Shown here piece by piece: positions 1,584 to 40,293 of a stretch of 42,082 nt of DNA. A program made the translations under genes and the position numbers. Under the pieces are notes generated by a model. The model had not been told where the DNA came from, did not search any database, and was given only the letters and a program-made list of their open reading frames with translations. Source of the stretch: Chiloscyllium plagiosum (Eukaryota); NCBI RefSeq assembly GCF_004010195.1, contig NC_057719.1, positions 39,269,218 through 39,311,299 on the forward strand, given 5' to 3'. The first letter of the stretch is position 1. Each line of letters opens with the position of its first letter.

Positions 1584-2404
1584 CTTAAAAACAAAACAAA
1601 AAATAGTTACACTGGGGACAATAAACCTCATCAATATTCAGTACACCCTCTCCATAAAATAATGTACCTGCCTAAGACATTTATATTTAGTTCTCACATC
1701 CACAATGGGACGAGCATTTGGGTATTGTTTACATGCTGATGACATTTCAACTATCTTAGTACTGACTTTCCAATAGCTAATGTCATTTTACAGCAGAACA
1801 AAACAGAAATACGGAGAAAAAAACCCAATTCATAACCTTGCCACACAGCGCAGACCTAAGGGTGGGAATGGATGAAGTAGAAGGCATCTTTAATCCCAGA
1901 TCCTTTTTTTTCCTCTCCATTTACTCATTTGCTCGTGGTCTGAGACATTTCAAGCATAAAATTATTTCAACAGCATTTTGACACATAAGCAATATTTGAA
2001 AGGGTACCAGTGGTTAACATTCAAACATATCTTCTGTTGCTCTTTCACTTCTACGAATGTCATCAAAGAGCCAGTGACAGGTCTGAAGTAGCTCCCATGA
2101 AGCCAAAATTGCACCTGAATCATTTAATCCACCAATTGTATTCAGCTACCATTAAAAATGTGCCGGATAAGATTCAAAAGGGAGCACCAGGTGAATCTTA
2201 AAGTGCATGCATGCAAGCTTGATGGTCATGGCAGGAGGAGAAGTAGGAACTTGCTGGACATTGACCAGTGTGAATCCTTCCCTAACTACATAGCCCAATG
2301 GATTTCCACCTCTTCACACTGCCATACAACAGAAGTCTGCTATCAATAATTTATGTAGTGTTGGACTCTGGCTCAATCTACCAATTTAAAGTTACTTTCT
2401 CCTA

Positions 2405-3003
2405 TGTGTGAGCCAAGTCCTGCGTGTTCTTTTAAATGAAGCAATAGGAGAAGATATTCGGTCTCACACTCTTAATTTATTTTACACAGTAAGTGAACAA
2501 AGCATTCAGAGCTCTGGGTCTAAACCTCTTTGTCCCTGACAAACTACAAAAGTGTGCCAGTTCAAAAAGAAAGACCTCGTTTTGTCCCTGCCCCAGTCTT
2601 TTATACCATAAAAAACGTCATATAAACACTGAGGTAGAATTATCTTCTGATTGGGTGTTGCTCTGACTCCATTCCCCGCCTCCTCGCATTCCTAGATGTC
2701 CGACCCCACGTGACCTTCTTTTGCCTGCGAAACGGAGCATCACGTGACCTCCTCGACCCATCTCCGAGGCGCGAAACGGAACATCACGTGACCGACCGCC
2801 CTCTTCCGGGGGCGCGAAACGGGACGTCACGTGACCGCCCCCTGCTTGTGTTACAGAGTCACCACAGGGTTTTGAGTGCTGAATCCATCCAGAGTCACAG
2901 CCAGCCTTCCGTTTTTAAAGTAAGGAATATATTTACAGTAGCCATTTGAGTTTAAGCAGAGTATCCAACATGGTCTGTCAGCAATTGTAATCTCCAAGCC
3001 ACA
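2405..3003 (-). mobile_element. Probable solo LTR (ERV- or Gypsy-type); upstream boundary uncertain
   Basis: Read on the minus strand in LTR order: enhancer repeats (2836-2707), GC box (2683-2674), CCAAT (2654-2650), TATAAAA (2605-2599), AATAAA (2481-2476), terminal ...CACACA (about 2405). No clean TSD found. Confidence 0.5.
2707..2836. promoter_or_regulatory. CpG-rich tandem array of E2F-like (GGCGCGAAA) and E-box (CACGTGAC) modules
   Basis: CACGTG at 2707, 2741, 2785 and 2828. GGCGCGAAA at 2768 and 2811, degenerate TGCGAAA at 2726. The full module repeats every 43-44 bp. Confidence 0.7.
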
Positions 3004-3281
3004 TTTATATAGCCTTCTTAGTTAAGAAGATTGTTTCAACTAAGTGAAGGAATCTGATGAATAAAATTGTGACGCAGGGGTTCAATGCCTTAATACCTAC
3101 CTGAAAGTGTGGACCCAAAAGCTCAGCGGATACAGAACAATCCTCAACAGCACAAGTGTAGCTGCACCAGTCATTGTGACATAGCTGAATGAACGTAGAA
3201 GGCCATCTCACTCAAAAGTGTTGCCCACTAATAACCAACACTGAGTTATCTCATTTACTGTTGGTGCGGAGGAGCCAGAAT

Positions 3282-3345
3282 TGAAGGAGCAGCACTCTGA
3301 AAGCTAGTGCTTCCAAATAACCTGGTGTTGTGTGATTTTTGGCTT
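3282..3345 (+). mobile_element. Short PLE terminal fragment (family B, same as 10930-11175)
   Basis: gaaggagcagcactctgaaagctagtgcttccaaataacctggtgttgtgtgattttt matches 11099-11172; hammerhead core degraded. Confidence 0.6.
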
Positions 3346-3499
3346 AATTTACTGTTGTCACTGGGAATGCAGCACCAGATTCACTCTTTAAATGTATTAC
3401 AATTAACGCCCTGATTTTCTTTTGCAGATAATTTGTTCAAATGCACAGTAACCTGAAGGGGCACTCTTGTGTGTGGTCTCCGCAGGAACCTTTGGGTTG

Positions 3500-3900
3500 C
3501 TGTAATGCCGTCTGGACACTCAGCAATGACTACCACTGAAAAATGCACTTAATATAGAAAACTGTTACAAGGTGCTTCACAGTCGCTTAATCGAAAAAGT
3601 AAACGCTAAGTTAAAATACAGATAAGTAGGAGGGATGGCCAAATTAGTACAGATTTATCGGAATGTTCTTCAAGTGGGAGTGGGAGATGGAGAGCCAGAG
3701 GAATTTATGGAGGGAATTCCAGAGCATTGGACTTAAAATGCTGAAGATATTGTCCACAATAAAAGGGGCAAACAACAAGGGAGCACAAGACTGGTGAGAG
3801 AGGAATGGAGTGTTTGGCACCAGGCAACAGTAGGATATAGAGCTGAGCAAGGTTTTATGGATAAGAAGGAGCAAGTTCATGAGGAATGAAAACATTCAGA
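3500..3900 (-). mobile_element. Old L2-like LINE / SINE 3' fragment
   Basis: Segments such as aaggtgcttcacag and ggagggaattccagagc resemble the reverse complement of L2 3' ends; highly decayed. Confidence 0.35.
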
Positions 3901-4093
3901 TGAGAAATATATATATCAAGGCACAGTGAACTGGAACATTAGTCGGTAACGAAAAATACAAACTGATGTTATTGAAAGTAGACAGTGGCAATATTCCGAC
4001 CCATTTGTTCAGTATGTCTGTCTGTTCATAAAGAACTTATCTCAAAACCTAATGGATGGGTTTCAACAAAAGGTTAGACACACATAGGTAATG

Positions 4094-4283
4094 GAGGAGA
4101 AAGTGAGTCTGCAGATGCTGGAGATCAAAGTTGAAACTTTATTGCTGGAACAGCACAGCAGGTCAGGCAGCATCCAGGGAACAGGAGATTCGACGTTTCG
4201 GAAGGGCCTGTGCCCGAAACGTCGAATCTCCTGTTCCCTGGATGCTGCCTGACCTGCTGTGCTGTTCCAGCAATAAAGTTTCA
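4094..4283. mobile_element. Palindromic PLE-derived mini-element (family A) with 14-bp TSD
   Basis: TSD acacataggtaatg at 4080-4093 and 4284-4297. Inverted arms 4131-4201 / 4214-4284. The junction has removed the CTGA of the hammerhead core. Confidence 0.85.
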
Positions 4284-4419
4284 ACACATAGGTAATGCTC
4301 AACAAAGAACATATTAGACTTTGGTGATGATATGGATCTGGATCCAGATCTTGGACAATTTTTTTTAAAATGGTCCATTAACATTAGGAAAAAGGACAAA
4401 CTTACTTCAAACAATTATT

Positions 4420-6240
4420 TAGTTTGTTCATGGGATTTGTCACTGACTAGGTCAGCATTTATTGTCCTATTCTAATTGCCCTGGAGAAGGTGAGCTATCT
4501 TCCTTGAACCACTGCAGGGCCACTCAACTGTCATTAGGAAGGGAGTTCCAGGATTTTGACCCAATGACAGTGAAGGAGCATGATATAGTTCCAAGTCAAG
4601 ATGCTGTGTGGTTTGGAGGAGAACATGTAGGTAGTGCTGTTCCCATGTGTCTGCTGTCCTCGTTCTTCTAGACGACAGACATCACATGTTTGGAAGGTGC
4701 TGACAAAGGAAGCTTGCTACGTTACTGCAGTGTACTGTCAGTGGTGAAGGGAATGAATGTTCAAGGTGGCGGATGGGTGCAATAAAAAAGGATGCTTTGT
4801 CCTGGATGGTTGACCCTCGTGTGTGTTGTTGGAGCTGTACACATCTAGGCAGTATTCCATCATACTCCTACTTGTGACTTATAGATAATGTATAGGCATT
4901 GAGGAGATAGGAGGAGACTTACTCGCTGCAGGATTCTGAGCTTCTGACCTGCTCTTGTAGCCACAGTATTCATATAGCTGTTCTAGTTCAGTTTCTAATC
5001 ATGGTAACTCCCATGGTAGTGAGTTATTAGATGATAGTAATGCTATTGAATGTAAGTGGATGACAATTATATTCCCTCTTTTGGAAATTGTCATTGCCTG
5101 ACACTTGTGTGGTGCAAAAGGGAGTTGGCTGAATGTTGTCCAGGTCTTGCTACATATGGACATACATTGCTTTAGTATCTGAAGAGTTGCAAAATTTGTT
5201 AAACATTATGAAACAATCACTGAATGTCTTCAGTTCTGGCATTCTGATGGAGGGAAGGACATTTATGAAGCACCTGAAGACCCATTTTCCTTTGAGTCAT
5301 GTATGTTTCCATCCAGAGGAGGCTTTTGTCCAATTGCCATTGACTCTAGTTTTGTTCTGCCTTCTTGTTGATGCGATACTCAGTCATATTCGACCCTGCT
5401 GTCAAGAGCAGTCAATCTCCCATCACCTTGGGAATTCAGCTTTTACTTGTGTTTGATCCAAAGCTGCAAGGAGGTCAGGTACTGACTGGTTATGGCAGAA
5501 CCCAAACTGAGTATCAGTGAGCATGTTATTCCTTTGCAAGTTCCAATGAATAACACTGTCAATGGACCATTCAGCCACTTTGCCAATGATTGAGAACGGA
5601 TCATTAGGGCTATAATTGGTCAGGCTGAGTTTTGCATATAGAATATACCTTTAGATGAAAGTTTTGTAGCTGCACTGGAACAACTTGGCTAAGGACATGG
5701 CTAGGAGGAGAAAGTGAGGTCTGCAGATGCTGGAGATCAGAGCTGAAAATGTGTTGCTGGAACAGTGCAGCAGGTCAGGCAGCATCCAGGGAACAGGAGA
5801 ATCGACGTTTCGGGCACATGGCTAGGTCTGGAGGACAAGTCTTCAATAATATTGTCAGAGTGTTGTGGGCCCGTGGCCATTGTGGTATCCAGTGTCTTCA
5901 GCTGTTTATTGACATGACATGGAGTTAATCAAATTGGCTCAAAATTAGTATCTGCAAATGTTGAGGATCTCAGGAGAATAACAAAATGAATCATCTGTTC
6001 AGCCCGTCATGGCTGAGGATAGATGAAAATGTTTCAGCCTTCTTTGCACAAATGTGCTAGAATCCCCCATTGTTAAAGATGGGAATAATTATCGAGCCTC
6101 TTCTTCCTCTTGTTGGTCATTTTATTGTTCACTACCATTCATAATTGGTCATGGCCAGACTGGAGAATTTACACCTGATCCGTTAATTGTTGGATCACTT
6201 ACACTATTGTATACTGCTTTCACAGCTTGGTCAGCAAGTT
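4420..6240 (-). mobile_element. Decayed CR1-group LINE (same type as 7715-8845), interrupted by a PLE fragment
   Basis: Reverse complement resembles 7715-8845 (e.g. gaatgttgtccaggtcttg vs caagatctggacaatatcc; ctgacctgctcttgtagccac vs gtggcgacaacagcaggtcag). Confidence 0.6.
5706..5815 (-). mobile_element. PLE 3'-terminal fragment (family A) with 11-bp TSD
   Basis: TSD acatggctagg at 5695-5705 and 5816-5826; sequence ggagaaagtgaggtctgcagatgctggag...cgacgtttcgggc. Confidence 0.85.
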
Positions 6241-7714
6241 GACCTAAGTTATGGGTTGATAGTTAGTTTATTTAGAAAGTTGTTGATTATTTTAGAATGT
6301 TATGAATTGTCTCAACTGCTGTGGTGCAGCTGTCAAAATATGAGCATCATTTTCAGAGCAGATTGTTGGATGACAATTGTCCTGAAGCTTCCTTAGAGAT
6401 GGAAACTCCTAACAGATTATTTTTTAGTTTTGTAGTTGCAAACCTCAAGGAAGAACTGTGTAATTGTAATAATGTTAACATAGCATGGCCAAGTTATTCT
6501 GAGTGCCCTATTCAAGTATAATTGTTGACAGGGGTTATTATCAAGGAGAAGCACCTCGCTAAAAATAGATTGCTCACATGCACCTATCAAGCAATACATT
6601 GAGATTGCTTGATTACCCTTTGAGCCACAGAGTTCCTTATGGTTGATGCAAAGTTAAGTATGAAGAAATGTTTTTTTAAACACACATTGCAGTGTTTTAC
6701 ATGAAGTAAGTGTATTCGATGAAGCCATTTCCATGGTGTGGTTAGCTTGGTCTTCAGGCAGTATGCAGAATATAATGTCCTGCATCTCTCTGGAACTAAT
6801 TGCTGCTATGATGGGGCCAGACAAGCAACCAATCAACACCTGAGGTGCCCCCACAAATACGCTCCACAGTATTTGTCAACTTGGGATAAATGGTAGTGTC
6901 AGGTGATCTGCTTCATTGTATTGTAAATATAAATCAAATAACTTTCCTTTATATGTTTTTTCATTCTTGCTATCCATTGTTTAGGGATTAGTCATATCTT
7001 TCATGTGACCTATTTAGGTATTGTTTTCTGCTGTTCCGGCATTGTCATGTTCACCTCCTTTTGCATTTAAAATGTGGAATATTTTCATGTGGAAGTATAT
7101 GTATTGCAATTCCCAAAACATTTTCTTGTTGAAAGGCACTGAACTGTCACTTGATCTGGTACCCCAAAAGTGGAAGTCATTATTGCAGAGACTGCTTTAC
7201 CGACCCTTTTTTCAGATTCTTTCTAACAATACTTTGTTATTGTCCACTTCTCTCTTTTATCTGAATTGCTTCTCGAGATGTGAGCACCCCTGCTAAGGTC
7301 AGAACCTGTTTACCTTTAAATGCCTTTAAGAATGTTGGAAACAATAATTTCAGCAGGTGTAACAATGCAAAAAATTCTACATTCTGACCAAAATATAAGC
7401 AAAAGGTTTTGAAAATCCAAACAATGAACCTCATTAAAATGCTTGAGTCCCTTTAAATACTCCTTTAACATAACGCTTGCTATTATCATCTTTTGGGAGT
7501 GGCACTAGATGATTTTGTTTTGAGATTTTTAGGATTTGAAAGGAATTAATAAAGGAAACAAGAAATCTTTTATGCTGTTGAGAGTGCCTTGAACAATGGG
7601 ACATAACATTAAATAACAGTGGTCAATCACAACTCTAATTAGGAAACACTTCTTCACAAGAAGTGTGGAACATTTCTCCCCCCATAAAATGTAGCAGTGG
7701 AACTTCTTTTTAAG

Positions 7715-8845
7715 CTACATTCAACCGACTGTGGCATCAAGAAAAACCATAGCAAAACTGGAATCAAACGGTATCAGGGGGCAAACTCTCCAGTGGCTGA
7801 CATGTAGGAAGATTGTTGTGGTTGTTAGAGGTCAGTCATCTCAGCTGCAAGACATCTCTGCAGGAGTTCCTTTGGGTAATGTCCTCAACCCAACCATCTT
7901 CAGCTGCTTCACCAATGACCTTCCTTCACCATAAGGTCAGAAGTGAGGATGTTCACCAATGATTGCATAATGTTCACCATTCGTAACTCCTCAGAAGCAA
8001 TCCATGTTCAAATGCAACAAGATCTGGACAATATCCAGGCTTGGGCTAACAAGTGGCAAGTAACGTTTGTGCCACATAAATGTCAGGTCATGACCATCAC
8101 AATTAAGAGCTAATATAACCACCACCCCATGGTATTTAACAGTGTTACCATCACTGAATCCTCCATTATCAACATGCTGGAGGTTATCATTCAGCAGAAA
8201 CTCAACTAGACTCATCACATAAACACAGTGGCGACAACAGCAGGTCAGAGGCTAAGAATACTGTGGAGAGCAACTCACCTCCTGACTCCCCAAAGTTTGC
8301 CCACCATCTACAATGCACAAATCAGGAATGTGATGGAATACTCCCCACTTGCCTGGATGAGTGGAGCCCCAACAACACTCAAGAAACCTGACACTGTCCA
8401 GGACAAAGCAGTCTGCACAACTGGCACTATACCCACAAGCATCCACTCCCTCCATCACTGATGCTGAGTAGCAGCAATGTGAACTATCTACAATATACAC
8501 TGCAGAAATTCACCAAAGATACTCAGACAGCACCATCCAAACCCTCGACCACTTCCATCTAAAAGAAAAAGAGCAGCAGATATATGAGAACACCACCACT
8601 TTCAAGTTCTCCTCCAATCCACTCATCATCCTGACTTGGAAATGTATTGTCATTTCTTCACTGTCACTGGGTCAAAATCCTGGAATTCCCTCCCTAATGG
8701 CATTGTAGGTCAACCCACAGCAGATGGACTGCAGCAATTCAAGAAGATAGCTCACCACCACCTGCTTAAGGGCAACTACGAATGGGCAAGAAATGCTGGC
8801 CAGCCAGCCATCAACGCCTACACCCTACAAAATGAATCAATTTTA
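7715..8845 (+). mobile_element. CR1-group LINE 3' portion (reverse transcriptase pseudogene)
   Basis: ORF fragments KLESNGIRGQTLQWL...ISAGVPLGNVLNPTIFSCFTNDLP (RT GVPQG motif) and IYNAQIRNVMEYSPLAW (RT C-terminal); multiple stops and frameshifts. Confidence 0.8.
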
Positions 8846-8859
8846 AAAATACCTCCTTA

Positions 8860-10600
8860 TCAATTTTAAAACCCTTTCAGTGACTGAGATTCCTCCTCTA
8901 TCTCAATGGCCAGGGCAGCATCTCCTTCATTAGTTTAAACAGATGCAAAGTATTAATTTAACACCACAGCCATGCCTCCTGCCTCTCTGCAGGTGTGAAA
9001 TTCCTTTTTAGTCACTCCTCCTTTTGGCATTCTTTTACTCTATAAGGTACCTCTACAATACTTTGGGATTCCATTTATGTTAACTTTTATTATAAACCCA
9101 CCCTGTTCTTCTAATTTGCTTTTTAATCTCCCTTTTAAACCTTCTTCATAACACTTATTCAGCTTGGCTCACAATTGCAATTTCTATATAACGCCTTTCA
9201 TAAAACAATTTTTTCTTATTATCTTAATTTCTATCACCTTTTTCATCTACAGAACACTGACTTTTTGTCTTAAAGTCAATGTAAGGGAATATATCTCAAA
9301 CATACCAACACATCTCTTCTTTGAAGGCCATCTCTTTTTCAGTTATAATTTTTCTTCAGTTCCAATCTAACCTGTTCGTGCTCCATTGAAATCAGCTCTC
9401 CTCAAATTAACTATTCTTACTTTGGATGGTCTTTTGTCCTTTCTACTGTTATTCTAAGTATTACGATAACTATTCCCTAAATACTCTGGCATTGACACAG
9501 TCTCTGCTTGTCCCAACCCCAATCCTAAGAACCAGGTCCATTAGTGCCTCCTTTTTCATTCAACCTGACAAGTATTCAGTAGAATATTCTACTGAATATA
9601 ATCTAAGAATGCATGCCCCTCGCGGTTCCTTATATTATCCTAGTCAATATGGGTTAATTAAATTTCCTCATTATTTCTGATTCTATCTAATGATGTTTAC
9701 ACCTCTCTAAGTTCCTTGCAGTTTTATTCCTCTAGTTCGTGATCTATAAATGATACCAAGCAATATAATTGTAGCCTTTTAGCTCTTTAACGCGAGCCAA
9801 ATCGATTCTGTCCTTGAACTCTCTAGAATATGACTTTTCTGTTGAATCTTTCCTTAACCAACATAACCAACCCTCCTAATTTTTTCCTTTTTCTATCTCA
9901 TCGGAACAGTTATAATTGGGAATAATTAACACCCAGTCCTGGCTTTCCTTGAGCAATGTCTCTGTTATAGTTATCATAACGTCATAATCCCGCATAGGTT
10001 GGCGATCTGCACATCTCATTGGCTGTGCTCCGTGCATTCAAATGCAGTGCAATGCTGATATACAGTCTACTCATTTCTTTCTTCAGTTCTGCAACTCTAC
10101 TTATTGACATACTTTTTTCTATTCTAACATTATCGATCTCTCTCAATGTTTTGTGCAGCCTGGTATTACTTCTAACATACTCCCTTGGTTCCCATACTGC
10201 TTCCAAGCTGGCTTAGAGCTCCCCAACAACAGTCTCTAAAAACCTGAAAATAACTCAGTCCCAGCTCCGTTAAGGTGCACCCTGTCTAACTTATACAGTT
10301 GCTTCCCCAGAGCCAGAGTCACATTCCTCCAAGGACTTCATCAGTATCAAAACAGGACCTCAGGCGACTCTTGCTTCACCTACCTGGCTCTCTTTGCCTC
10401 ACTATCACCTATTCCCTATTCGCCTACATGCCCCTATGCTGCAGTGTGACTACCTGTCTGAGCATGTATCCCTTTAGTTCTCTTCCATGTAGATACATTA
10501 CTGAGACTCCAGGCACAGTTCAAGCTCTAAATCCACAGCCAATAAAACCTTCTGCAAAAGTACGCACCTAGGTCATGTCATGCAGTCTTCCCACTTGCTT
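8860..10600 (-). mobile_element. Heavily decayed CR1-like LINE remnants
   Basis: Patchy resemblance to antisense CR1 ORF1/endonuclease regions; no long ORF. Confidence 0.3.
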
Positions 10601-10929
10601 AGGATAGATTAGATATGGCAAGGCATCTCAGCCAAGCCTTAAATCTTACTTTTGTGCTATTTACTAAGAACTTACTTTTCTTGAACTAGGTTGTTTTGTA
10701 AAATTACATTTTCAAAATTTTCCAAGTTTGTGAGACAGTCCCAAACAGCAGCAGCAGCAGCTTATAAAGGAATTTCTCCTTCGTTCTAAATCACTAAACT
10801 TCCAATTCAGCAAGTTTAGCTTTTGGAATAAACTGTACATAGAGTGCTTCGTTCCCCCTTTGCATTGAATTCCCACTTTGAATCTATTTCCTCAAGTACT
10901 CACTCTGCCTCACGTCACTCCTTTACATA

Positions 10930-11175
10930 TGAAAGAATTTACACATGTAAGAACTGAAACCAACATGTTCATTCTAAAAGATGAGAGACTTAACAAACAA
11001 TCCAGATCTTTTTCAATATATAATTTCAGTTACATCACACTATAAACTTTTGTTATAAATTCTATGTCCTACAATCTTATATTCCACAACCATCTGATGA
11101 AGGAGCAGTGCTCCGAAAGCTAGTGCTTCCAAATAAATCTGTTGGACGATAACCTGGTATTGTGTGATTTTTATC
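10930..11175 (+). mobile_element. PLE 3' end (family B) carrying a hammerhead motif
   Basis: Ends ...ccacaaccatctgatgaaggagcagtgctccgaaagctagtgcttccaaataaatctgttggacgataacctggtattgtgtgattttt; related copies at 3282 and 23905. Confidence 0.65.
11091..11125 (+). ncRNA. Minimal type I hammerhead ribozyme (family B)
   Basis: CAT-CTGATGA-A-GGAGC/agt/GCTCC (stem II)-GAAA-GCTA (palindromic AGCT stem III, CUA triplet)-GTG; short stem I. Confidence 0.6.
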
Positions 11176-11570
11176 TCATGTCACTCCAGCATAGTCTGAA
11201 CAGGCACCCTTACTGACCAGGTAGCTTTTTTAAAAAACTCTTACACGGAGATGCTGCAAAGTCACCTGACCACTCAGCTTAGTTTCCTGTTTCAGTGATT
11301 AACACCAATTCATCAATCATTTTAAATTTAAGACTAATGGGTTTCGAGTTTAGGCTTTCCAAGGGTATAGAATGATGTGGTGCCAAGGCAAGGGAGAGGA
11401 GTTCAAATAGGGATTAGCTTTGATCTCAGTGAATTTCAAAACAAGCTTAAAAGGAGTGAATAGATTGCTCCTGCAGGGACAAAGAATGAGAAACCAGAAT
11501 ATAAATCTTATATCTTTTAACAAAATCTTAATGCTTGGACATAAGTATATCCATGACATTTTCTTGATTA

Positions 11571-11789
11571 TGAAACTTTATTGCTGGTACAGCACAGCAG
11601 GTCAGGCAGCATCCAGGGAACAGGAGATTCGACGTTTCGGGCACAGGCCCTTCTTCAGGATTCCTGAAGAAGGGCCTGTGCCCGAAACGTCGAATCTCCT
11701 GTTCCCTGGATGCTGCCTGACCTGCTGTGCTGTACCAGCAATAAAGTTTCAACTTTGATCTCCAGCATCTGCAGACCTCACTTTCTCCC
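11571..11789. mobile_element. Perfectly palindromic PLE-derived mini-element (family A) with 15-bp TSD
   Basis: 90-bp inverted arms 11571-11660 / 11662-11751 around a single T, plus an unpaired ~37-bp tail to 11788. TSD cattttcttgattat at 11557-11571 and 11790-11804. Confidence 0.9.
11658..11697 (+). ncRNA. Minimal type I hammerhead ribozyme (family A)
   Basis: Stem I GGATTC (11658-63) / GAATCT (11692-97); core CTGAAGA (11664-70); stem II GGGC-ctgt-GCCC; GAAA (11684-87); palindromic ACGT stem III; GUC cleavage triplet ending at 11691. Confidence 0.75.
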
Positions 11790-11855
11790 CATTTTCTTGA
11801 TTATATCAAATACTAAACAAATGGACATTAAATACAGAAATACTACAACTGCAAT

Positions 11856-12561
11856 GCAATTTTTTAAATGCTTTTTCAGGTTGACAGGATTGTTTTGAGT
11901 TCCAAGGTTTCCAAGTTTCTGACTCAACACTCCTCTTACTGTAACTGCTGTAGGATTAACTGTAGTGGAGGGCACTGCTCACTGTTTTTGTTCAAGTGAA
12001 ATGATCTCACTTTCATTCAGTATATGAGTCAGCTTCATCCAAATATACACTTCAGTGATTTACACTTTAAATTCAATGACTGAAAAATCTGTTTTTGTAC
12101 CTCTGATTCTCACATAGCCAGTGGTGATTAACTTGAAACTGCCAGATTTTTAGGTCAAAGAGATGTGCTATTTGACTTGGAGATTATATTGCTTATTAGC
12201 ATATAGGCAATTTTTTAAATGCTTTTTTTCAGGTTGACAGGACTGTTTTGAGTTCCAAGGTTTCCAAGTTTCTGACTCAACACTCCTTTTACTGTAACTG
12301 CTGTAGGATTAACTGTAGTGGAGGGCATTGCTCACTGTATTTGTTCAAGTGAAATGATCTCACTTTCATTCAGTATGTGAGTCAGCTTCATCCAAATATA
12401 CACTTCAGTGATTTACACTTTAAATTCAATGACTGAAAAATCTGTTTTTGTACCTCTAATTCTCACATAACCAGTGGTGATTAACTTGAAACTGCCAGAT
12501 TTTTAGGCCAAAGAGATGTGCTATTTGACTTGGAGATTATATTGCTTATTAGCATATAGGC
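11856..12561. repeat. Direct tandem duplication, two copies of about 351-353 bp
   Basis: Copy 1 11856-12206, copy 2 12207-12561. By eye 8 substitutions and one 2-nt poly-T length difference. Confidence 0.92.
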
Positions 12562-13104
12562 TCTTCCGTGAATACTTACAGGCTGCCACCTTCTCTGCCT
12601 TGCATTGCTCTTTTGCACTGAGACTGAGGTAGGGAGTTTATCACTATGCAAGCACTGAAGAGTCAAGGGGTGGAATGTCTCTGCATGGCAATGTCACACC
12701 TCCAGCACATGCCAATAGTTTATGAGGCAAACACAATGCATGTGCTTCAACCAAAATGACATGCCTGAAAGTCAAAAGGAGTCCTTCGTAAGGTGAAAGG
12801 AGACATTGGTCAGTTGGGGTATCACCACATTCAGTTAAAAGACTCAGCTGATTCTAGTCAAGGACGTTGGTGATATTCAGTCAGGTACTTGATTGGGCCA
12901 ATGTCTGGGGACCTACGTCCTTCGAATCCAGGGATTGAGCCACAGTCAGTCCAGTAGATCAACTGCAACCACTCTGGGGGTCACCAATGCATCAGGTGGG
13001 GAGCTGTGGAGATATCAGCCGGGGAGTAAGCCGTATTCAGTTCAGGGTGTCATCAAAATCAGACGGCTTATGGTCCATGATTAATTCTGGGGATTAAATG
13101 ACCT

Positions 13105-13205
13105 CATTCCTGATGAAGGGCTTTTGCCTGAAATGTCAATTTCCCTGCACCTTGGATGCTGGCTGACCTGCTGTCCTTTTCCAGCACCACCCTAATCTGG
13201 ACTCA
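13105..13205 (+). mobile_element. PLE 3' fragment (family A) with degenerate hammerhead
   Basis: cattcctgatgaagggcttttgcctgaaatgtc...ggatgctggctgacctgctgtccttttccagcacc. Confidence 0.7.
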
Positions 13206-14364
13206 TTTATTTAAAGCACCATTCATGACCAGCAGCAGTAGCAGAGAAAGAACAGCAGCACCAACAAATTGGGCCTAATGTTTGAGGTTTGATGTTGGTG
13301 AACAAGTACAATTTCTGTCAAACTCATTTTTGAAGCAAATTGTTAACATAACATTAGGGGATTTGCATAGTAGGAGCAATAAATAAGACCACTGCTTTTG
13401 GAGCAGCTGGAGAGAGTCTTTCTTCTTACCTTCAAGAATATAAATCAAATACACAAAGGGATTTCCTGGGTAATGACACTAGCCTTACAAAATCAAACTT
13501 GAAACTTTACTACTGTTTAAATCTCAGTCATGACTCAAATGGCAGCACTTTCATCTGAGTCAAATGGTTGTGGAATGCAGCCCGCACCAGGAACTTCACA
13601 ACAGAACAATACAAACTCCACCTTATGAAGTGCAACGTTTGTTAGAGCCTTCATTGACTTTTCATTATTCTTAATTTATACTTTTATCAATTTTGGTTTT
13701 GAACTGTAAACTGGGAACTGTGAGCTAAAGATGATTTTTGGACTGTGGATAGTAGCTTGTGTTAAAAGGAAAACAGACAAAACAAATTTTTCTTTATTTG
13801 TGAGACCAGCCTGAAGTTAATTGCAGGTTGGTTCCTGATAATAAGGTTCTGCTGACACTTTGTCACCAGTGAAGAGCATTATGTTTAAACAGATAACAGA
13901 AGCTGGCTATTAACAAGGTCAGTACCTAAGATTTGGATCCAGCAAGTCTGGAAAAGACCTTATATTCAAGCAGATGGCAGATGTTGAATGGTAACTGGGA
14001 CCTCGTACAGGAGGTGCTCAGCCGGTCAGGCAGCACCCAGAGTTTGAATTGGGTTTTCAACAAGCATTCTTTGTTAAAAAGGAATCTGGCTGTTGAGGCT
14101 ACAGTTTGAAGGTATGTATTACTGCTTTTATCTGAGTGCTGAAAAGGTGATCCTGATTGACATCTTCAGAAAATCAACAAAAGTCCATGAAAACCATTTA
14201 AGTAATCAAGCCAGTTTTATTATTTTCTTTTATTTGTCTCTTAACTATGTTTGTTTGTCTGTCTGTCTTGTGTGAAACAAACATTCTTGCGTTTAAAGCA
14301 TGGACAAATTAGTTTAGTTTATTGTTTATTTTTTGCTGTACTAAAGTTGCCGTATTGCTAATTT

Positions 14365-14597
14365 TGGGGGTCAGTTAGCTCAGTTGGCTGGACAGTTGGG
14401 TTGTGATACAGAGCGGCGCCAGTGATGTGGATGCAATTCCAGCTGAAGTTACCATGAAGAACATTCCTACTCAGCATCTCCCTTTGCCCGAGATGCGGTA
14501 ACCTTCAGGTTAAATCACCCCCCCCATACTCCACATGTCTTTCTCTAATGGAACAGAAACCCTATGATGTGGAAACACTATAGTGATTTTACCTTTG
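14365..14597 (+). mobile_element. tRNA-derived SINE (not HE1)
   Basis: tRNA-like head ggggtcagttagctcagttgg (A box) with degenerate B box; near-TSD tattgctaat (14353) / tattgttaat (14599). Confidence 0.55.
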
Positions 14598-14784
14598 ATA
14601 TTGTTAATAAATTGCTAAGGTCTTTTTTTTTTAAATACAAACCAGGATCTGGAATTCGCAGAATCTGGGATAGGTTATTCAAAAGGTCTGCTTAAGAACA
14701 CTGGGTCAACTTTGAGGGTCTATGAAGGTTTTAATTTTATGGTGTTATAAATACAGAGTTGAGTTGGTTTAGCTGTCTGTGTGT

Positions 14785-15135
14785 CAAAAAGTGTGGCACT
14801 GAAAAAGCACAGCAGGTCAGGAGGGTGGAGCAGATAGGTGGGAAGGATGGTGGGCAGATAGGACAGTGCAAGAGGGCTGTGCCAAGTTGAAAGGTTGGAT
14901 CTGGGATGAGGTGAGGGAAGGGGAGATTTGGAAACTGGTGAAGTCTAATGTTGATGCCGTGTGGTTGAAGGGTCCCAAGGTGGAAGATGAGGTGTTCTTC
15001 GTCCAGTTGTCGGATGACTTGGACTTGGCAGTGGCGGTGGCCCAGGACTTCATGTCTTTGGGGGAGTGGGGGACAGAGTTGAAGTGGTCGGCCACAGGAT
15101 GGTGGAGTTGTTTGTGTCTGTCTCTGTGGCCTAAC
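14785..15135 (-). mobile_element. PLE fragment encoding the C-terminus of the GIY-YIG endonuclease region
   Basis: Minus-strand frames give HPVADHFNSVPHSPKDM and LDEEHLIFHLGTLQPHGINI, matching the PLE protein at 28604-28870. Confidence 0.75.
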
Positions 15136-15504
15136 ACATCAATGGCATCTGACTCTATCACCTCCAGTTAAAAATTACTGGACAGTGGTGATATATATTC
15201 AAGCTTCTCCAATGGTTCTATTTTAGCTAACCCCATAACTAAAAGTAACTAAAGTAACTCACTCCCCCATATCATTTAAGTGTAAAAATTCACCACCAAA
15301 TCAGACCATGCCACTGATCTAACTATCAAAATACTTCATTCTTCTAGCACTGTGAAATAAAAGGACAATTCATAGAACACCTCCATAATTTTATATACTC
15401 AAAGTTTATTAATGTGTTGTCTAGTAAGGAAGGGAGGATTTGTCGCTATAACTGAATATATTTTACTAAAGAGTTATATAGAATTTGTATGAAAAGCATT
15501 TTAC

Positions 15505-15785
15505 ACAGGTGACTGTGTGTGGAGCTGGCCAAAGCTCCATGTCTGTGTGGGTTTCCACTGGGTGCTCCGCTTCCTCCCACAGCCCAAGGATGTGCAAGGT
15601 AGGTGGATTGGCCATGCTAAGTCACCCATAATGTCAGGGATGTGCAGGCTAGGTGGATTAACCATTGTTAATGTGTGGTTATGGGCATAGGGTGAGGGGG
15701 TAGATCTGGGTGGGATGATCTTTGGAGGGTCAGTGCAGACCCGATGGGCCGAATGGCCTCTTTCCACACTGTACGGATTCTATAA
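15505..15785 (+). mobile_element. HE1/V-SINE, 5' truncated
   Basis: gtgactgtgtgtggag...tgggtttccactgggtgctccgcttcctcccacagcccaaggatgtgca core and CR1-like 3' tail. Confidence 0.8.
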
Positions 15786-16199
15786 GACTGTAGAATATTA
15801 AGGATTTTATTAAAATGTACAATAAACTATATTTGTGTTTACAATCTAAATAATTTGTATATCCACAAAAAAATGTAGAACATTTTTCCAAAACTAATAA
15901 ATTTGGCAGTGTTACACAGGGTAGTTAAGCTCTAATGTAGTCTTTGTGAAAAGTAGTATATGCTTCTATATGCTGAGTGGGCAGAGTAGGGGATGGTAAC
16001 AGGAAATTGGATCAGTGAACTTAATAATTCACTAGCATTATAAAGTCCAATATTCTTATCCTTATTTTGAATAATACTTTAGTTTTTTTTCTTACTAATA
16101 AAATATCCGGCAGTTTAAAAATGAAAAAGAGAGTTGGTTGATGCAGGGGACTTCCACTGAAATCCATGTCCAGGAGTTGAGTGAGATATAACTCAACAA

Positions 16200-16385
16200 C
16201 CAGGTGCTCCGGTTTCCTCCCACAATCCAAAAACGTGCAGGTTAGGTGAATTGGCTATGCTAAATTGCCCGTAGTGTTAGGTGAAGGGGTAAATGTAGGG
16301 GAATGGGTCTGGGTGGGTTGCGCTTTGGCCGGTCGGTGTGAACTTGTTGGGACGAAGGGCCTGTTTCCACACTAAGTAATCTAAA
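16200..16385 (+). mobile_element. HE1/V-SINE 3' half
   Basis: caggtgctccggtttcctcccacaatccaaaaacgtgcaggttagg...gaagggcctgtttccacact. Confidence 0.8.
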
Positions 16386-16726
16386 AAAAAAAACCATCAC
16401 TGACGGAAGTGAGTAATTGCAATTTGACAAGTAGTGTTGGGGGTGGGTGGTAGTGCAGATGGATATTACCACGCATTTTTGCCACCAAAGAAGTTAAGTT
16501 ACAGACATACTGAAATATTGTTAAACTGTCCAAGATTTCCTCCTAGTGGTTTGATGCAAAATTGGCTGACATCAAAACATAGTCAATAATGGATTAGAGG
16601 TAATCAGTTCTATTATAATCAGAAACAACTAACTAATGTAACCACTGTATTATTTTAAAAATCCATTATTTCAAAGGTATACCTATAAAATCAATCTGAC
16701 AATGTTAAAAAATATTTGTACCATAC

Positions 16727-23904: not shown

Positions 23905-24037
23905 AACAATGATGGAGATACCGGTGTTGGACTGGGATGGACAAAGTTTAAAAAACTACACAACACCAGGTTATAATCCAACAGTGCTTCCAAATAAACC
24001 TATTACAGTATAACCTGGTGTTGTGTAATTTTTAACT
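23905..24037. mobile_element. Inverted pair of PLE family B termini
   Basis: aaaaactacacaacaccaggttata ... tataacctggtgttgtgtaattttt inverted arms, matching 11125-11172. Confidence 0.65.
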
Positions 24038-24389
24038 ATGCTAAAGATGTTATAAGTGTTGTTGGTGGTGTGTTCAGTTGGAAAGGATAAAGAAAATAAA
24101 AGGAAGATTTAAACCAGAGCACCCAGAGGAAACCCATGCAGACACAGGGACAATATGCAAACTCCACGCAGATGGAATTGTAGCTCTTCACAAGATATTT
24201 GCCACATTTGTCTTCTATATCTCTATTTATTCTTCACTTTCTATGTTAATTATGACTCGAGTATATACCGTATACACTCGAGTAATAGTTGAATTTTTTT
24301 TGACTGCCTTTTAAGGTTAAATTTATAGGGTCAGCTATTACATGGATATTTTTGAGGGGCTGAAATTCATGCCCGTCAAAATTCATACC

Positions 24390-26707: not shown

Positions 26708-26886
26708 CCACCCTCCTATTTATCTCTCAGCCCCCTGCTCACCCCCACCCCCATCACATTCCTGATGAAGGGCTTATGCCCGAAACATCAACTCTCCCGC
26801 TCTTTGGATGCTGTTTGACCTGCTGTGCTTTTCCAGCGACACACTTTGATTGTGACTCTCCTGCCTCTGTAGTCCTCACTTTCTCC
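26708..26886 (+). mobile_element. PLE 3' end (family A) with hammerhead core
   Basis: attcctgatgaagggcttatgcccgaaacatc...gtcctcactttctcc; the CG of the stem III/cleavage site is mutated to CA. Confidence 0.8.
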
Positions 26887-28199: not shown

Positions 28200-29002
28200 C
28201 TAAAAGCTTGTCCTACCCATCATGCAAAACTTTCTTCCCACAATTCCTCTGCATGTTCCTTGGCCACCATCCTCCTCAGCCCTTGGACCAAATTAAGCAA
28301 CCCTTCAACCCTTAAGAGCTCAGACACCTATAACTTGCATGTTAATGCCAGCTCACTTTATAAAGGACACACATGCAAATTCATGCATTTTCAGAGTGTA
28401 CTGAGTGTACTGAGGTCAGCCAGGTGGATTTCATTGAATATGAGTTCTCGGATTGGGGCAGTTAATCTTCGAAGACTGTACTCAGTATGTGGAAACAATT
28501 AATATTTTCTGGGCAAATGACATTGGGGCAGATGAAAGGAAATGTGTAATTCTTCTGACAACTTGTGAACCCACAGCTGTTTGGGTTATTAGGAGTCTAA
28601 CTTTCCCTAAGGCAGAAGATGAGGCATTCTCCCTCCAGGTGCGGGTGGTGAGGGAGCAGTGGTGGAGAAGGCCCAGGACCTGCATGTCCTCGGCAGAGTG
28701 GGAGGGGGAGTTGAAATGTTGGGCCATGGGGCAGTGGGGTTGATTGGTGCAGCTGTCCCGGAGATATTCCCTGAAGCGCTCTGTGAGGAGGCGTCCAGTC
28801 TCCCCAATGTAGAGGAGACCACAGCGGGAGCAACGGATACAATAAATGATATTGGTGGATGGGGCGAAACTTTAATGGATGTGGAAGGCTCCTTTGGGGC
28901 CTTGGATGGAGGTGAGGGAGGAGGCACAGGTTTTGCAATTCCTGCGGTGGCAGGACAAGAGGGTGGGTTGTTGGGGGGGCTTGGACCTGATCAGGTAGTC
29001 AC

Positions 29003-29939
29003 CGATGATACGAAGTTAGGTGGACAGGCAGGTAGTACTGAGGAAGTGGGGAGGCTACAGAAGGATCTCGACAGGTTGGGAGAGTGGTCCAGGAAATGGC
29101 TGATGGAATTTAACGTGAGCAAGTGCGAGGTCTTGCACTTTGGCAAAAAGAATAAGAGCATAGACTACTTTCTAAATGGTGAGGAAATTAATAAAGCCAA
29201 AGCACAAAGGGATCTGGGAGTGCTAGTCGAGGATTCTCTAAAGGTAAGCATGCAGGTTGAGTCCGTGATTAAGAAAGCGAATGCAATGTTGTCTCTTATC
29301 TCAAGAGGGTTGGAATATAAAAGCAGAGATGTACTACTAAGACTTTATAAGGCTCTGGTTAGGCCCCATTTGGAGTACTGTGTCCAGTTTTGGTCCCCAC
29401 ACCTCAGGAAGGACATACTGGCACTGGAACGTGTCCAGCGGAGATTCACACGGATGATCCCTGGAATGACAGGTCTAACATATGAGGAACGGCTGAGGAT
29501 ACTGGGATTGTATTCGTTGGAGTTTAGAAGATTAAGGGGAGACTTAATAGAGACGTACAAAATAATACATGGCTTGGAAAAGGTGGATGCTAGGAAATTG
29601 TTTCTGTTAGACGAGGAGACTAGGACCCGTGGACACAGCCTTAGAATTAGAGGGGGTCATTTCAGAACAGAAATGCGGAGACATTTCTTCAGCCAGAGAG
29701 TGGTGGGCCTGTGGAATTCATTGCCACGGAGTGCAGTGGAAGCCGGGACGCTAAATGTCTTCAAGGCCGAGATTGATAGATTCTTGTTGTCTAGAGGAAT
29801 TAAGGGCTACGGGGAGAATGCTGGTAAGTGGAGCTGAAATGCGCATCAGCCATGATTGAATGGCGGAGTGGACTCGATGGGCCGAATGGCCTTACTTCCA
29901 CTCCTATGTCTTATGGTCTTATCGTCTTATGGTCTTATG
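29003..29939 (+). mobile_element. Young 5'-truncated CR1 LINE with uninterrupted ORF2 C-terminus
   Basis: Open frame DDTKLGG...LQKDLDRLGEWSRKWLMEFNVSKC...LYKALVRPHLEYCVQFWSP...GKWS* (stop 29837). 8-bp ttatggtc tail repeats. Flanking gtcac at 28998-29002 and 29940-29944. Confidence 0.93.
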
Positions 29940-30113
29940 GTCACGGAGGGAACAGTCTTTGCGGAAAATGGAAAGGGGTGGGGAGGGAAATATATCTCTG
30001 GTGGTGGGGTCTGTTTGGAGGTGGCGGAAATGTCCACCTATTGTACTCTTTGCTACCTTCTCCTCAGCCCCACCCCCCCATTTATCTCTCCACCCTGGAG
30101 GATCCCTGCCTCT

Positions 30114-30149
30114 ATTCCTGATGAAGGGCTTTTGCCCGAAACGTCGATT
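30114..30149 (+). ncRNA. Minimal hammerhead ribozyme core (family A)
   Basis: attc-CTGATGA-A-GGGC-tttt-GCCC-GAAA-CGTC-gatt; core and stem II intact, stem I has a mismatch. Confidence 0.55.
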
Positions 30150-31575
30150 TTCCTGCTCCTTGGATGCTGCCTGACCTGATTTGGACACAAATATCTGGTC
30201 CTGGCAAAACTGAAACTGGTGATGATGCAGGAAACCAAAGGGCCATCGCAACCAGAAGTGAAACCTTTTTGGACCCGGGGAGACCAGATCCCAATTGCAG
30301 ATGGCATATTATTGCAGGGAGCAAGAGTGAGTGTCTTGAGCAAAGGTCACTAACAGATAATGGCTGAACACCTCCAGGGTCTTTCAGAGCTTTCCAAAAT
30401 GAAGAGGTGTTTGAGAAGTTATGTCTGGTGGCCAGAAATGGATTCAGACACAGCTGTGTAGGTGGGGCAGTGCCCAGAGTTCCAACAAGGAGAAAAATTA
30501 CAACTGCAACACTCTCTCAATCATGCAAGTGGCCAGGTAAACCCTGGACTCAGAAAGGTCTATGCAGTTCTCTTCATGGGCTCAATGTTCATACTCATTG
30601 TGAATGTCCACTCAAAGTGGCTGGACTTGCATAGAATTAATTCATCAAACACTGAGATGACAACAGAAAAACTGCACACGTCTTTTGCAATACATGGACT
30701 CTTAGAAGTGTTGGTAACAGATAATAAGCCACTGCTTATCAGCAAGGAATTTAGATATTTCCTAAAGTTGAATGTTATTCAACATGCAAGGACAGCTCTA
30801 TAGCATCCATTACCCAATGGCCTGGCAGAAAGAGCAGTCCAAACTTTGAAAGCAAGTTTAAAGAAATAGCCTACAGCTTCATAAGATAACAAATTGTTCC
30901 TGTACTTATTTGATTATAGGATCCCTATATGCAACTATAGAGGTAGTTTCAGCAGAGTTGTTCATAGGGAGAAGACTCCCCACACCCAGGTTAAATCTGA
31001 TCTTCCTGGACCTGGGTGATGGTGGTGGAGTGGGCAGGATGGAACTGCATCAGGAATGCCAATGTCAGGCACAAGACTCCATTAAGCGAGAGAGACAGTT
31101 TACTTCAGGGAAAAAAAGTTGTTGTAGGAACTACTCGAATGGCCCTGCATGGGTAAGTGTCATGGTCAATGCAAAGTCAGGTCCAGTAATGTTTTAAAGT
31201 TAAGGTAGGTGCGATGGTCCTAAACAAGTGTGTAGACCATATGAAAGCTGCAAACCCACAAACAGTGCAGGAGAAAAACGTGTCTGGTTCCTTGACAGCC
31301 TTTAACTGTTCCAGAACCTGTGGAGTCCCCCTCTCTGTCAAGCGTTTAAAGATACTTTGGAACCTGAAATAGATACAGTGGATCTCACCATCCCATTGTA
31401 GCCTGAAGAGAACACATTCTTTCAAGATGCTCTGAGAACAAGAGGCGAGCTACTGTGCATTTACACGCTGCACATATTAGGGTTGGACGAACCTGTCCAG
31501 ATGCTAAAATGCTCTGGGAGAAGACACACACACACAAAAAAAAAGCCTATATCCTCAGACTCAAAGGGGGAGAGA

Positions 31576-35479: not shown

Positions 35480-36695
35480 ACAGAATTAGCTAATGGCAGG
35501 AAACAGCAAGTGGGGATAAGCTCTTTTTCAGGTTGGCAATCTGTTCCTAGTGGATAATTGTTGAGACTGCAACTGTTTACAATATACATTATGACTTGGA
35601 GGAAGGAAGTGAATGTACTGTAGCTAAATGTGTAGATGACACAAATTGGTGGAAAGACAGGTTGTGATAGGGATACAAATAACAGAGATAGTGATAGATT
35701 AAGTAAATTGCCAAATGGGGTATGTGAAATTATTCATTTTGGAATGAAGAACAAAAGAGCTACATGCTATTCAACTAGAGAATAACTTTAGAATGCTGCA
35801 ACACAAAGGGACTTCAGGGTAACTGCAGAGATTAGAGTCGAGAGTGTTGTGCTGGAAAAGCACAGCAGGTCAGGCAGCATCAGAGGAGCAGGATAATCAG
35901 TGTTTCGGGCAAAAGCCCTTCATCATGAATGAAGCTGGGAGCCTTGGGGGTGGATGGATAAATCTCTCCACCACTGAGGCTCCCAGCCTCATTCCTGATA
36001 ATGGACTTTTACCCAAAACGTCGTTTTTCCAGCTCCTCGGATGCTGCCTGACCTACTGTGCTTTTCCAGCACCACACTCAATTAAAGCAGGCCCTTATTC
36101 AAATGGGTTTGGAGCATATGAGTGGGGAAGTCTTAGTGTGACTTACAAGGTGCTACTGAGTCCACGTCTTGAGAATTATGGGCAGTTTTGGTCGCCTTAT
36201 TTAAAGGAAAGATATCATTTCATTGGAGACCGTTCAGAAATTCCCTCCTATGGAGAGATTGTCTGGAGCAAAGACTAAACAGGTTGGGACTCTACTCACT
36301 GGAGTTTAGAAAAATGGGAGGTGATCTTGTTGAAACATATAGTATGCTTAAGGGGCTTGACAGGGTAAATGCTGACAGGATGTTTCCCTCGTGGGAGAAT
36401 CTAGGACCCCGAGGGCATAGTCTCAGAATAAAAGGGTGCCAATTTAAGACAGATGAAGAGGAATTTCTTCTCTCAGATGCTTGAGAGTCTTTAGAATTCA
36501 CCACAGAGAGGTGTCTGTGGATAGAGTCCTTGTGTATATTTAAGGCTGAGATAAATAAATTCTTGGGGAATCAAGGGTTACAGGGAAAAGGCAGAAAAGT
36601 GGATGTGAGGACTGTTGGATCAGCCATGATCCTAATGGTGGAGCTGGCTCAAGGCAGTGAACGGTCAACTCCTGTTCCTATTTCTTATGGTCTAA
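35480..36695 (+). mobile_element. Decayed CR1 LINE, interrupted by a PLE inverted pair
   Basis: gatgacacaaa (DDT of RT), YKVLLSPRLENYGQFWSPYLK, LGLYSLEFRKMGGDLVETY, tail ttcttatggtc. Confidence 0.85.
35830..36080. mobile_element. Inverted pair of PLE family A termini (diverged)
   Basis: gtgctggaaaagcacagcaggtcaggcagcat...tttcgggcaaaagcccttcatca / attcctgataatggacttttacccaaaacgtcg...cttttccagcaccacactc. Confidence 0.8.
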
Positions 36696-38983: not shown

Positions 38984-39819
38984 GAGAGAGTCAGAGTCAT
39001 ACAGCATGGAAAGACCCTCCAGTTCAACGTATCCAGGCCAACTAAATTAGTCCCATTTGCCTGCGGTCGGCTCATATCCCTCTAAACTTTTCCTATTCAT
39101 GGAGAAAGTGAGGACTGCAGATGCTGGAGATCAGAGCTGAAAATGTGTTGCTGGAAAAGCACAGCAGGTCAGGCAGCATCCAAGGAGCAGTAGAATCGAC
39201 GTTTCAGGCATAAGCCTGAAGAAGGGCTTATGCCCGAAACGTCGATTCTTCTTTTCCTATTCGTGTACCTGTCCAAATGTCTTAAATGTTGTAACTGTAC
39301 CTGCAGCCACCACTTCCTCTGGCAGTTCCTTCTATAAATGAACCACGCAATGTGTGAAAAGGTTGCCCCTCTGGTCCCTTTTAAATCTTTCTCCTCTCAC
39401 CTTGAAATTGAACTCCCCTATCCTCGGGAAAAGAACTTTACTATTCACATTATCTATGCACCTCATGATTTTATAAACTCCATGAGGTCATCCCTCAGCC
39501 TCCAACGCTCCAGGGAAAAAAGTACCAGCCTTTCCTTATAACCTTAAACCCTCCAGTCCCAATAGCATCCTTGTAAATCTTTTCTGCACCCTCTCCAATT
39601 TAATAATATCTGTCCTATAACAGGGTGACCAGAACTGTACACAGTATTCCAAAAATGGCCTCACCAATGTCCCTGCTCATATACTCAATGGTCTAAGCAA
39701 TGAAGGCAAGCCAAACGCCTTCTTTACCACCCTGTCTACCTACGAGGCAACTTTCAAAAAACTATATACCTGAACATCTAGATCTGTCTGTTCAACAACA
39801 CTCCCAGGGCCCTATCATT
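38984..39819 (-). mobile_element. CR1 LINE 3' portion (resumes about 40141-40196), hosting a PLE element and an HE1 SINE
   Basis: Reverse complement of the CR1 type at 24390-24905 (ccagaactgtacacagtattcc = EYCVQFW; tail gagtcatacagcatggaaa). Confidence 0.85.
39101..39250. mobile_element. PLE family A terminus with short inverted arm and ~15-bp TSD
   Basis: cttttcctattcatg (39087-39101) / cttttcctattcgtg (39251-39265); contains CTGAAGA-A-GGGC-ttat-GCCC-GAAA-CGTC at 39216-39243. Confidence 0.85.
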
Positions 39820-40137: not shown

Positions 40138-40293
40138 ATCATTAACTGTGTAAGTCATGCCCTTGTTTGTCTTGCATTTATCTAAATTAAGCTCCATTTC
40201 ATAAAAATGATTTGAGGAAATGGAGTATTCTACTGAAACGAATAGGGTGTAGGAAGGGAAGATCTTTCACAATGTTCATTCCATATCACATTT

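Follow-up and report, generated by a model that had tools for sequence, protein, structure and literature searches.

A young palindromic insertion, probably from the hammerhead-bearing end of a Penelope-like element, in a bamboo shark intron

Described Penelope-like elements and the shark locus

Penelope-like elements (PLEs) typically insert as 5'-truncated copies, each with an adjacent inverted copy that is itself 5'-truncated and with a one-sided tail of 30-40 bp (Craig et al. 2021, PMC8557442). In rotifers the inverted pLTR is accompanied by a 31-bp tail and a target-site duplication (TSD) of 8-10 bp, head-to-head being the usual arrangement (Arkhipova et al. 2013, PMC3846280). The passages of the former account drawn on here describe the origin of inverted copies as undefined (PMC8557442). 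PLE pLTRs carry a minimal hammerhead that has no stem III loop, is palindromic at positions 15.2-16.2, holds an extra base after position 9 and has a G10.1-C11.1 pair (Cervera and de la Pena 2014, PMC4209133); in the experiments excerpted there and in a review (PMC6765202), such motifs show no cleavage in vitro as monomers and low cleavage as dimers. The hammerhead of an anole PLE is reported to be protein-assisted (Frangieh et al. 2024, PMC11167929), and in vitro the protein of that element, a predicted dimer, cleaves both strands of its target and extends each of them, with reverse transcription (RT) starting at two sites that delimit the tail.

In the window, by which we mean the whole 42,082-nt stretch of Chiloscyllium plagiosum DNA that was analysed, a palindromic insert shares with the complex insertions of rotifer and other EN+ PLEs (PMC3846280, PMC8557442) a 5'-truncated copy with an adjacent inverted copy head-to-head, a tail on one end only (38 nt), a TSD of variable length (15 bp here and 11-14 bp in three sister copies, single at an empty site in run X11) and a hammerhead motif in the pLTR. 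It differs from the insertions described there in that only 130 nt of element end are present, the whole insert being palindrome plus tail, and in its 15-bp TSD, which compares with 8-10 bp in the rotifer examples (PMC3846280). Since new PLE insertions in algal introns have a median of 128 bp in the data cited (PMC9977147), the size of the present stump is ordinary. The palindromic layout has already been published for PLEs, and what we see here is probably an unremarkable insertion of that known type. We regard its membership of the PLEs as very probable, and consider it probable that the palindrome as a whole is a recent insertion in which an abundant shark PLE left only its hammerhead-bearing end, truncated on the 5' side, likely by way of two-strand priming and with a ribozyme predicted to be inactive.

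The motif matches the PLE minimal hammerheads of PMC4209133 in its loopless stem III, its palindrome, the extra base between 9 and 10.1, the G10.1-C11.1 pair and a short stem I (4 bp in its native form here). By contrast, its stem II has 4 bp rather than the 7-8 bp of the Schistosoma motifs described in that source, and it is paired with its own antisense copy where the metazoan motifs have a tandem partner (PMC4209133). The likeness to the Poseidon element PAc of Anolis lies in the two RT starts delimiting the tail and the cutting and extension of both target strands, each proposed for the shark element, in an A+T-rich target and a minimal hammerhead near the 3' end of the copies (PMC11167929). 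However, the PAc reading frame starts at hammerhead stem II, whereas the shark subfamily has no ATG in the core box, and the sections of that account drawn on here offer no explanation of inverted copies (PMC11167929). Non-LTR retrozymes are likewise non-coding, derived from pLTRs and equipped with a type I hammerhead, and the available part of the preprint reports them in the one cartilaginous fish sampled (bioRxiv 10.64898/2026.07.22.740005); they form head-to-tail tandems, whereas our insert is head-to-head and offers a single sense core on each strand. Penelope of Drosophila likewise has rearranged copies in which long inverted repeats occur; in transgenic D. melanogaster, siRNAs mapped to the inverted parts according to the text consulted (PMC3681739), although the host sequence here is a vertebrate intron. 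Among the papers searched on Penelope in sharks or Chiloscyllium we found no published description of this family, which Repbase, Dfam or the supplements of the retrozyme preprint may hold; PMC6155905 mentions sharks only through the name of the ribozyme.

Insert anatomy, host intron and empty sites

The inverted arms (11571-11660 and 11662-11751) are 90 nt each and 100% complementary around a single centre base, T11661; in five shuffled windows the longest perfect arm reached just 9-11 nt. The outermost arm pair recruits the final base of the left TSD, so that the insert itself, without this base, spans 11572-11789 (218 bp). The two copies of the 15-mer TSD are identical, and the 15-mer occurs only twice in the whole window. 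An earlier reading from sequence only had claimed mismatch-free 90-bp arms and an exact 15-bp TSD, both of which hold, and an unpaired tail of ~37 bp, which exists with a length of 38 nt. Upstream of the junction, the native letters of family members differ from those of this copy. A 353-bp tandem duplication (11856-12561, copies 97% identical) begins 51 bp past the right TSD. Features are collected in Table 1.

Table 1. Features of the insert, its host intron and related copies, in window positions
Feature	Positions	Strand	Remarks
TSD, left copy	11557..11571		15 bp, 80% A+T; single copy at the empty site of run X11
Inverted, tail-less arm	11571..11660	-	element positions 3-92 (position 1 = window 11660)
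Head-to-head junction	11660..11661		tailed arm begins 2 nt further 5' than inverted arm; base 11660 common to both
Tailed arm	11660..11789	+	element positions 1-130; 5'-truncated PLE 3' end (pLTR and tail)
One-sided PLE tail	11752..11789	+	38 nt; same tail on copies at 4096, 5707, 26760 and 39101
TSD, right copy	11790..11804		15 bp, matches left copy
Minimal type I hammerhead core	11664..11691	+	CUGAAGA 11664-70, extra A 11671, stem II 11672-75/11680-83, GAAA 11684-87; loopless palindromic ACGU 11687-90; C17 at 11691; stem I 11658-63/11692-97
Minimal type I hammerhead core	11631..11658	- (pre-mRNA)	stem I interrupted; cleavage would follow 11631
Host intron, EXOC3-like (Sec6 domain) gene	1584..16705	-	~15 kb, donor side approximate
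Palindromic sister copy	4080..4297	-	99% identical, arms 72/72, 14-bp TSD, centre elsewhere, core disrupted in each arm
Sister copy without inverted arm	5695..5826	-	11-bp TSD, truncated in stem II
Degraded copy	14790..15125	-	end of GIY-YIG PLE frame leading into 23-32 nt of this repeat on the same strand; hammerhead part missing
PLE frame remnant joined to pLTR piece	28599..30178		GIY-YIG frame (-) split by another element, joined head-to-head to hammerhead pLTR piece (+, 30035-30178)
Old palindromic copy	35828..36079		arms 94/113 identical
Palindromic copy, short inverted arm	39087..39262	-	inverted arm at element positions 4-46; 12-bp TSD

A Pfam scan of 117 frames matched the minus-strand frame 1203-1454 to Sec6, below the curated cut-off, and this frame has four homologues, EXOC3-like or unnamed, with Chiloscyllium punctatum (96%), Hemiscyllium and Stegostoma represented. 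With three of the four shark EXOC3-like homologues, tblastn placed coding blocks at 35060-34890, 26476-25868, 23525-23403, 21570-21487, 19327-19226, 16933-16706 and 1586-1218, all on the minus strand, and an acceptor AG was found before 1583. The insert therefore lies in a ~15-kb intron with minus as the pre-mRNA strand, which confirms the location that had been proposed for it from the letters.

Of 24 runs listed, four were aligned with the region 10900-12200: three DNA-type runs, X3 and X5 from different studies of organism A (the host species) and X11 from organism B (a related one), and the RNA run X21. In X11, the contig of record 7 covers 11118-11556 and then 11790-12200 at consecutive record positions 433/434; with one repeat copy at the empty orthologous site, it proves the TSD. 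In X5, record 22 (134 nt) matches 11453-11571 and carries 15 further letters at odds with the insert sequence; the match of record 23 starts at 11790. Adjacent X5 records overlap by 30 letters, and as 15 + 15 letters account for this overlap, run X5 probably holds an empty allele of the host species, judged from record lengths rather than letters. The claim of a recent insertion is thus supported by the empty site in organism B and the probable empty allele in X5, and presence or absence of the insert offers a usable marker for telling the two organisms apart, probably one that also varies within the host species. Positions 11510, 11975 and 12024 of the unique flank differ from the window in all three DNA-type runs, as private variants or window errors. 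None of the runs listed as containing the locus is an RNA run. In X21, of which about 2 in 100 were read, reads are confined to repeats with zero depth on the unique flank bins, a repeat signal that is not assignable to this copy; these reads show no pile-up of starts or ends, and their variant letters equal those in the DNA runs.

These records also bear on the extremely improbable alternative that the palindrome is a fold-back artefact of sequencing or assembly. Arms that are 100% identical would suit it, as would the fact that among the contigs listed for the aligned runs none spans the whole insert. However, the exact TSD is matched by the empty site in another organism, and in X3 the contig of record 11 (11144-11600), the only listed one at the left junction, passes from unique flank into the inverted arm by 29 letters, 2 short of our 31-letter junction rule and in the same study as the best-matching DNA run for the locus. 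Arms have diverged in sister palindromes (94/113, 26/28), and independent short-read assemblies likewise contain head-to-head joints.

The hammerhead motif and its predicted folding

The motif comprises a CUGANGA core, stem II, GAAA, UH, an open stem I, a palindromic loopless stem III and an extra base before stem II; on the plus strand, cleavage would follow 11691. Stem I has six possible pairs on plus, two of which (G11658, G11659) are borrowed from the inverted arm so that the sense arm alone gives four, and five on minus with an inner mismatch. A loopless stem III cannot close inside a single motif and depends on a partner core. The complete plus core with 6-bp stem I claimed by the sequence-only reading thus stands as a core (11664-11691) with the reservation about stem I, and the same core on minus with a weaker stem I (11658-11631) is borne out, but its palindromic stem III, counted there as part of a complete minimal motif, cannot close.

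The Rfam covariance search suggested at that stage returned no hammerhead at the gathering threshold over the whole window; at 11400-11950 it gave only miRNA matches and one snoRNA match, far below cut-off, with no hammerhead, and for the isolated core 11656-11720 there were no matches at E up to 10. The missing match lowers the case for an Rfam member, not for the motif, which lacks the stem III loop. The miRNA matches are owed to the hairpin, and a miRNA gene at the palindrome was rejected on scores far below gathering. In metagenomes, a 32-letter element pattern had no matches, and the 48 loci found for a 19-letter pattern were dismissed as chance, none aligning over more than 27 bases to the element. 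A scan for bacterial promoters and terminators, a method unsuited to shark, found nothing. Pair counts were not taken from a MAFFT alignment of 10 cores, which misplaced the third of the hammerhead-like repeat families in the window. This third family (11094-11176, 3282-3320, 23951-24037) has AGCU, as seen at 11094-11122, at the hammerhead place held by ACGU in our insert; its copy at 23951-24033 is partly palindromic, and the family is very abundant in all three DNA-type runs.

Folding predictions strongly favour the hairpin. The insert is predicted to fold at -194.7 (plus) and -200.8 (minus) kcal/mol, in support of the long double-stranded RNA hairpin proposed earlier, and an ensemble constrained to the hammerhead (stems I and II, free core) lies higher than that of the hairpin by 59.1 kcal/mol on plus and 63.0 kcal/mol on minus, these energies being equilibrium predictions. 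The penalty is unchanged with ~150 nt of flank added and already amounts to 49-51 kcal/mol in transcripts whose 3' end lies just past stem I. Whichever strand is read, the head-to-head layout places the sense core in the second-transcribed arm, and each strand of the palindrome has only one such core. Transcription as EXOC3-like pre-mRNA or in antisense is thus predicted to yield the core after its complement, which would zip it up at once, with no second sense core in cis for the needed dimer.

We consider the ribozyme very probably inactive in this context, as modelled, with the caveat that proteins can shift folding, by analogy with the protein-assisted anole hammerhead. The earlier proposal, that the hammerhead competes with the hairpin and cleaves EXOC3-like pre-mRNA or antisense RNA, is correspondingly very improbable. 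It can point to the presence of all core residues on both strands and to a probability of 0.45 that the isolated 43-nt plus core forms stems I and II. Set against these are the predicted penalties (59-63 kcal/mol in context and 49-51 for the earliest core-containing transcript), the loopless stem III with a single sense core per strand, the absence of monomer cleavage and low dimer cleavage described for PLE minimal hammerheads in the cited part of PMC4209133, a predicted misfolding of 11650-11720, the fragment that the earlier proposal chose for its assay (probability printed as 0.0), and the many sister palindromes that are cut through the core.

A duplex of 90 bp within an intron could plausibly serve ADAR as a substrate. 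This hairpin may be used by ADAR or Dicer, and the likely fate of the insert would be that of a near-neutral intronic passenger and candidate for ADAR editing.

The family and the origin of the palindrome

The sense arm has matches in the window at eight places that exceed 60 nt or form partner arms (4096-4285, 5707-5818, 13106-13186, 26758-26886, 30114-30178, 35828-36071 with two arms, 39101-39257 with two arms). Matching contigs number 34,358, 29,521 and 22,045 in the three DNA-type runs, a second repeat at 10944-11207 contributing, and summed depth in X3 (which does not equal copy number) is 1.3-3.1 million over bins wholly inside the insert against 5-13 on the unique flanks. The PLE family is plainly hugely abundant. 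At 11628 and 11694 total depth is ~1.25 million in X3 against ~0.05 million in X11, so that close relatives of the subfamily are more than 20-fold deeper in organism A than in organism B runs, which suggests a lineage-specific burst. Loose ends in all four runs place the family 3' end at 11788/11789. The object is accordingly not the singular one it had been taken for: it is one among tens of thousands of matching contigs and one of four palindromic family copies in the window. These four have four different centres, and TSDs measure 15, 14, 12 and 11 bp across the insert and three sister copies. Since centres vary among copies, the presence of a core on both strands is an accident of the truncation point. 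Head-to-head centres at other positions account for 12 of the 15 joints listed (sides of 19-26 letters), with 155 further joints beyond these; in all 12 listed centres both arms start after the first core base, centres upstream of 11660 being invisible to this listing. Head-to-tail joints occur elsewhere in the family.

Several other structures in the window resemble parts of this picture. At 37587-37841, a palindromic insertion of a different hammerhead family (7-bp stem II) has arms 79/83 identical, a 12-bp TSD and a layout like that of our insert. In the copy at 26760, the tail ends (26877-26889) in a pyrimidine run followed by TAG, which is splice-acceptor-like; Penelope pLTRs are known to contain an intron, according to the part of the review drawn on here (PMC6765202). 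Two inverted copies (76%) of another repeat lie at 39821-40608, and the same repeat occurs at 27916-28203, 16200-16384, 15508-15638 and 24111-24172. This repeat resembles a tRNA-derived shark SINE. A weak match to an integrase core (rve) at 30462-30800 (E 0.0008, below cut-off) probably marks the remnant of an LTR element.

Two degraded copies link the repeat to a PLE coding region. The remnant at 15125-14790 has 40% identity to protein P0008 (E 3e-11), and that at 28599-30030 has 73% over 136 aa; Pfam GIY-YIG matches, P0008 among them, score 20.7 and 21.7 bits, just under the curated cut-off of 22.6. Because the link rests on these two degraded copies, with no full-length element with RT, endonuclease and exact pLTR recovered, we regard it as supportive but incomplete. 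Together with the motif descriptions in the cited parts of PMC4209133 and PMC6765202, it supports the connection to PLEs and to a dimer-type minimal hammerhead that had been drawn from the letters. In the composite at 28599-30178, the frame remnant and a non-overlapping pLTR piece are joined head-to-head in a way that looks like L1-type twin priming, and no TSD of at least 7 bp was found around it. The element that splits this remnant at ~29003-29924 contains an open frame of 404 aa, bears an 8-bp tandem tail and is probably a LINE.

It is highly improbable that the palindrome moves whole, as a non-autonomous MITE-like or retrozyme-like unit. Inverted ends with a TSD, high copy number and the derivation of animal retrozymes from PLE pLTRs described in the preprint (bioRxiv 10.64898/2026.07.22.740005) all speak for such a unit. 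Yet among near-identical copies the centre, the length of the arms and that of the TSD (11, 12, 14 and 15 bp) all vary, one copy has no inverted arm, and the tail is on one side only. A MITE or other DNA transposon was rejected because the tail separates the right arm from the TSD and because centres, arms and TSD lengths vary. A non-LTR retrozyme tandem was rejected because the units described in the preprint stand head-to-tail with a core each (bioRxiv 10.64898/2026.07.22.740005), whereas the locus has a single head-to-head pair. The source RNA may nonetheless have been a non-autonomous PLE derivative.

For a truncated PLE insertion, the question becomes how the mirror arm was made. Both arms carry A11734/T11588, where ~94% of X3 family depth has the other letter, and a minority variant common to both arms makes one template likely. 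From three copies, we lean towards two-strand priming on one RNA over a self-priming fold-back. The end of the tail-less arm, at position 92 in this copy and at 92-94 in copy 4096, falls 38 nt short of the tail end, which recalls the two RT starts of the anole PLE. In two of the three fully tailed palindromic copies, moreover, the inverted arm starts further 5' than the tailed arm, by 13 nt in 4096 (tailed 23-129, inverted 10-94) and by 10 nt in 39101 (tailed 14-129, inverted 4-46), an excess that fold-back of tail-primed cDNA cannot give directly. Self-priming, in which the 3' end of a single cDNA or antisense template folds back to copy its own strand and the centre is later trimmed, seems to us possible but rather unlikely. 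Consistent with it are the identical arms with the minority variant in both, the tailed arm that starts 2 nt further 5' here, as a fold-back predicts, the difference of just 0-30 nt between arm starts in the 12 listed centres (worked by hand) and its published proposal for rotifer PLEs in the portion of PMC3846280 drawn on here. A later deletion at the palindrome centre could be the source of uneven arm starts, and fold-back or arm-to-arm repair could be that of shared arm variants. However, the 13- and 10-nt excesses require such an extra deletion under self-priming, yet the arms of 4096 are 72/72 identical, and self-priming gives no reason for a tail-less arm that ends at 92 in both young copies. 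The short inverted arm of 39101, which ends at about 40-46 and not at 92, fits neither priming model neatly.

Under two-strand priming, the GIY-YIG endonuclease of the element would cut the two strands of A+T-rich DNA at points 15 bp from each other. From one cut strand, cDNA synthesis would begin at the tail end (position ~130); from the other it would begin inside the element, ~38 nt upstream (position ~92), with a single RNA probably serving both. The two cDNAs would stop near the hammerhead and join through a 1-nt overlap.

A wider proposal, which we offer tentatively, is that this PLE family remains mobile in bamboo sharks and that its dimeric RT-endonuclease makes each palindrome in one step, with both cut target strands primed at the two start sites of one RNA, so that each insertion disarms its own hammerhead and plants perfect double-stranded RNA in host transcripts. 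The single locus matters little, and its modest value is that of a clean young specimen with a known empty site. If the one-step reading is true, however, the junction statistics of young polymorphic copies would reveal the origin of PLE inverted structures in a vertebrate.
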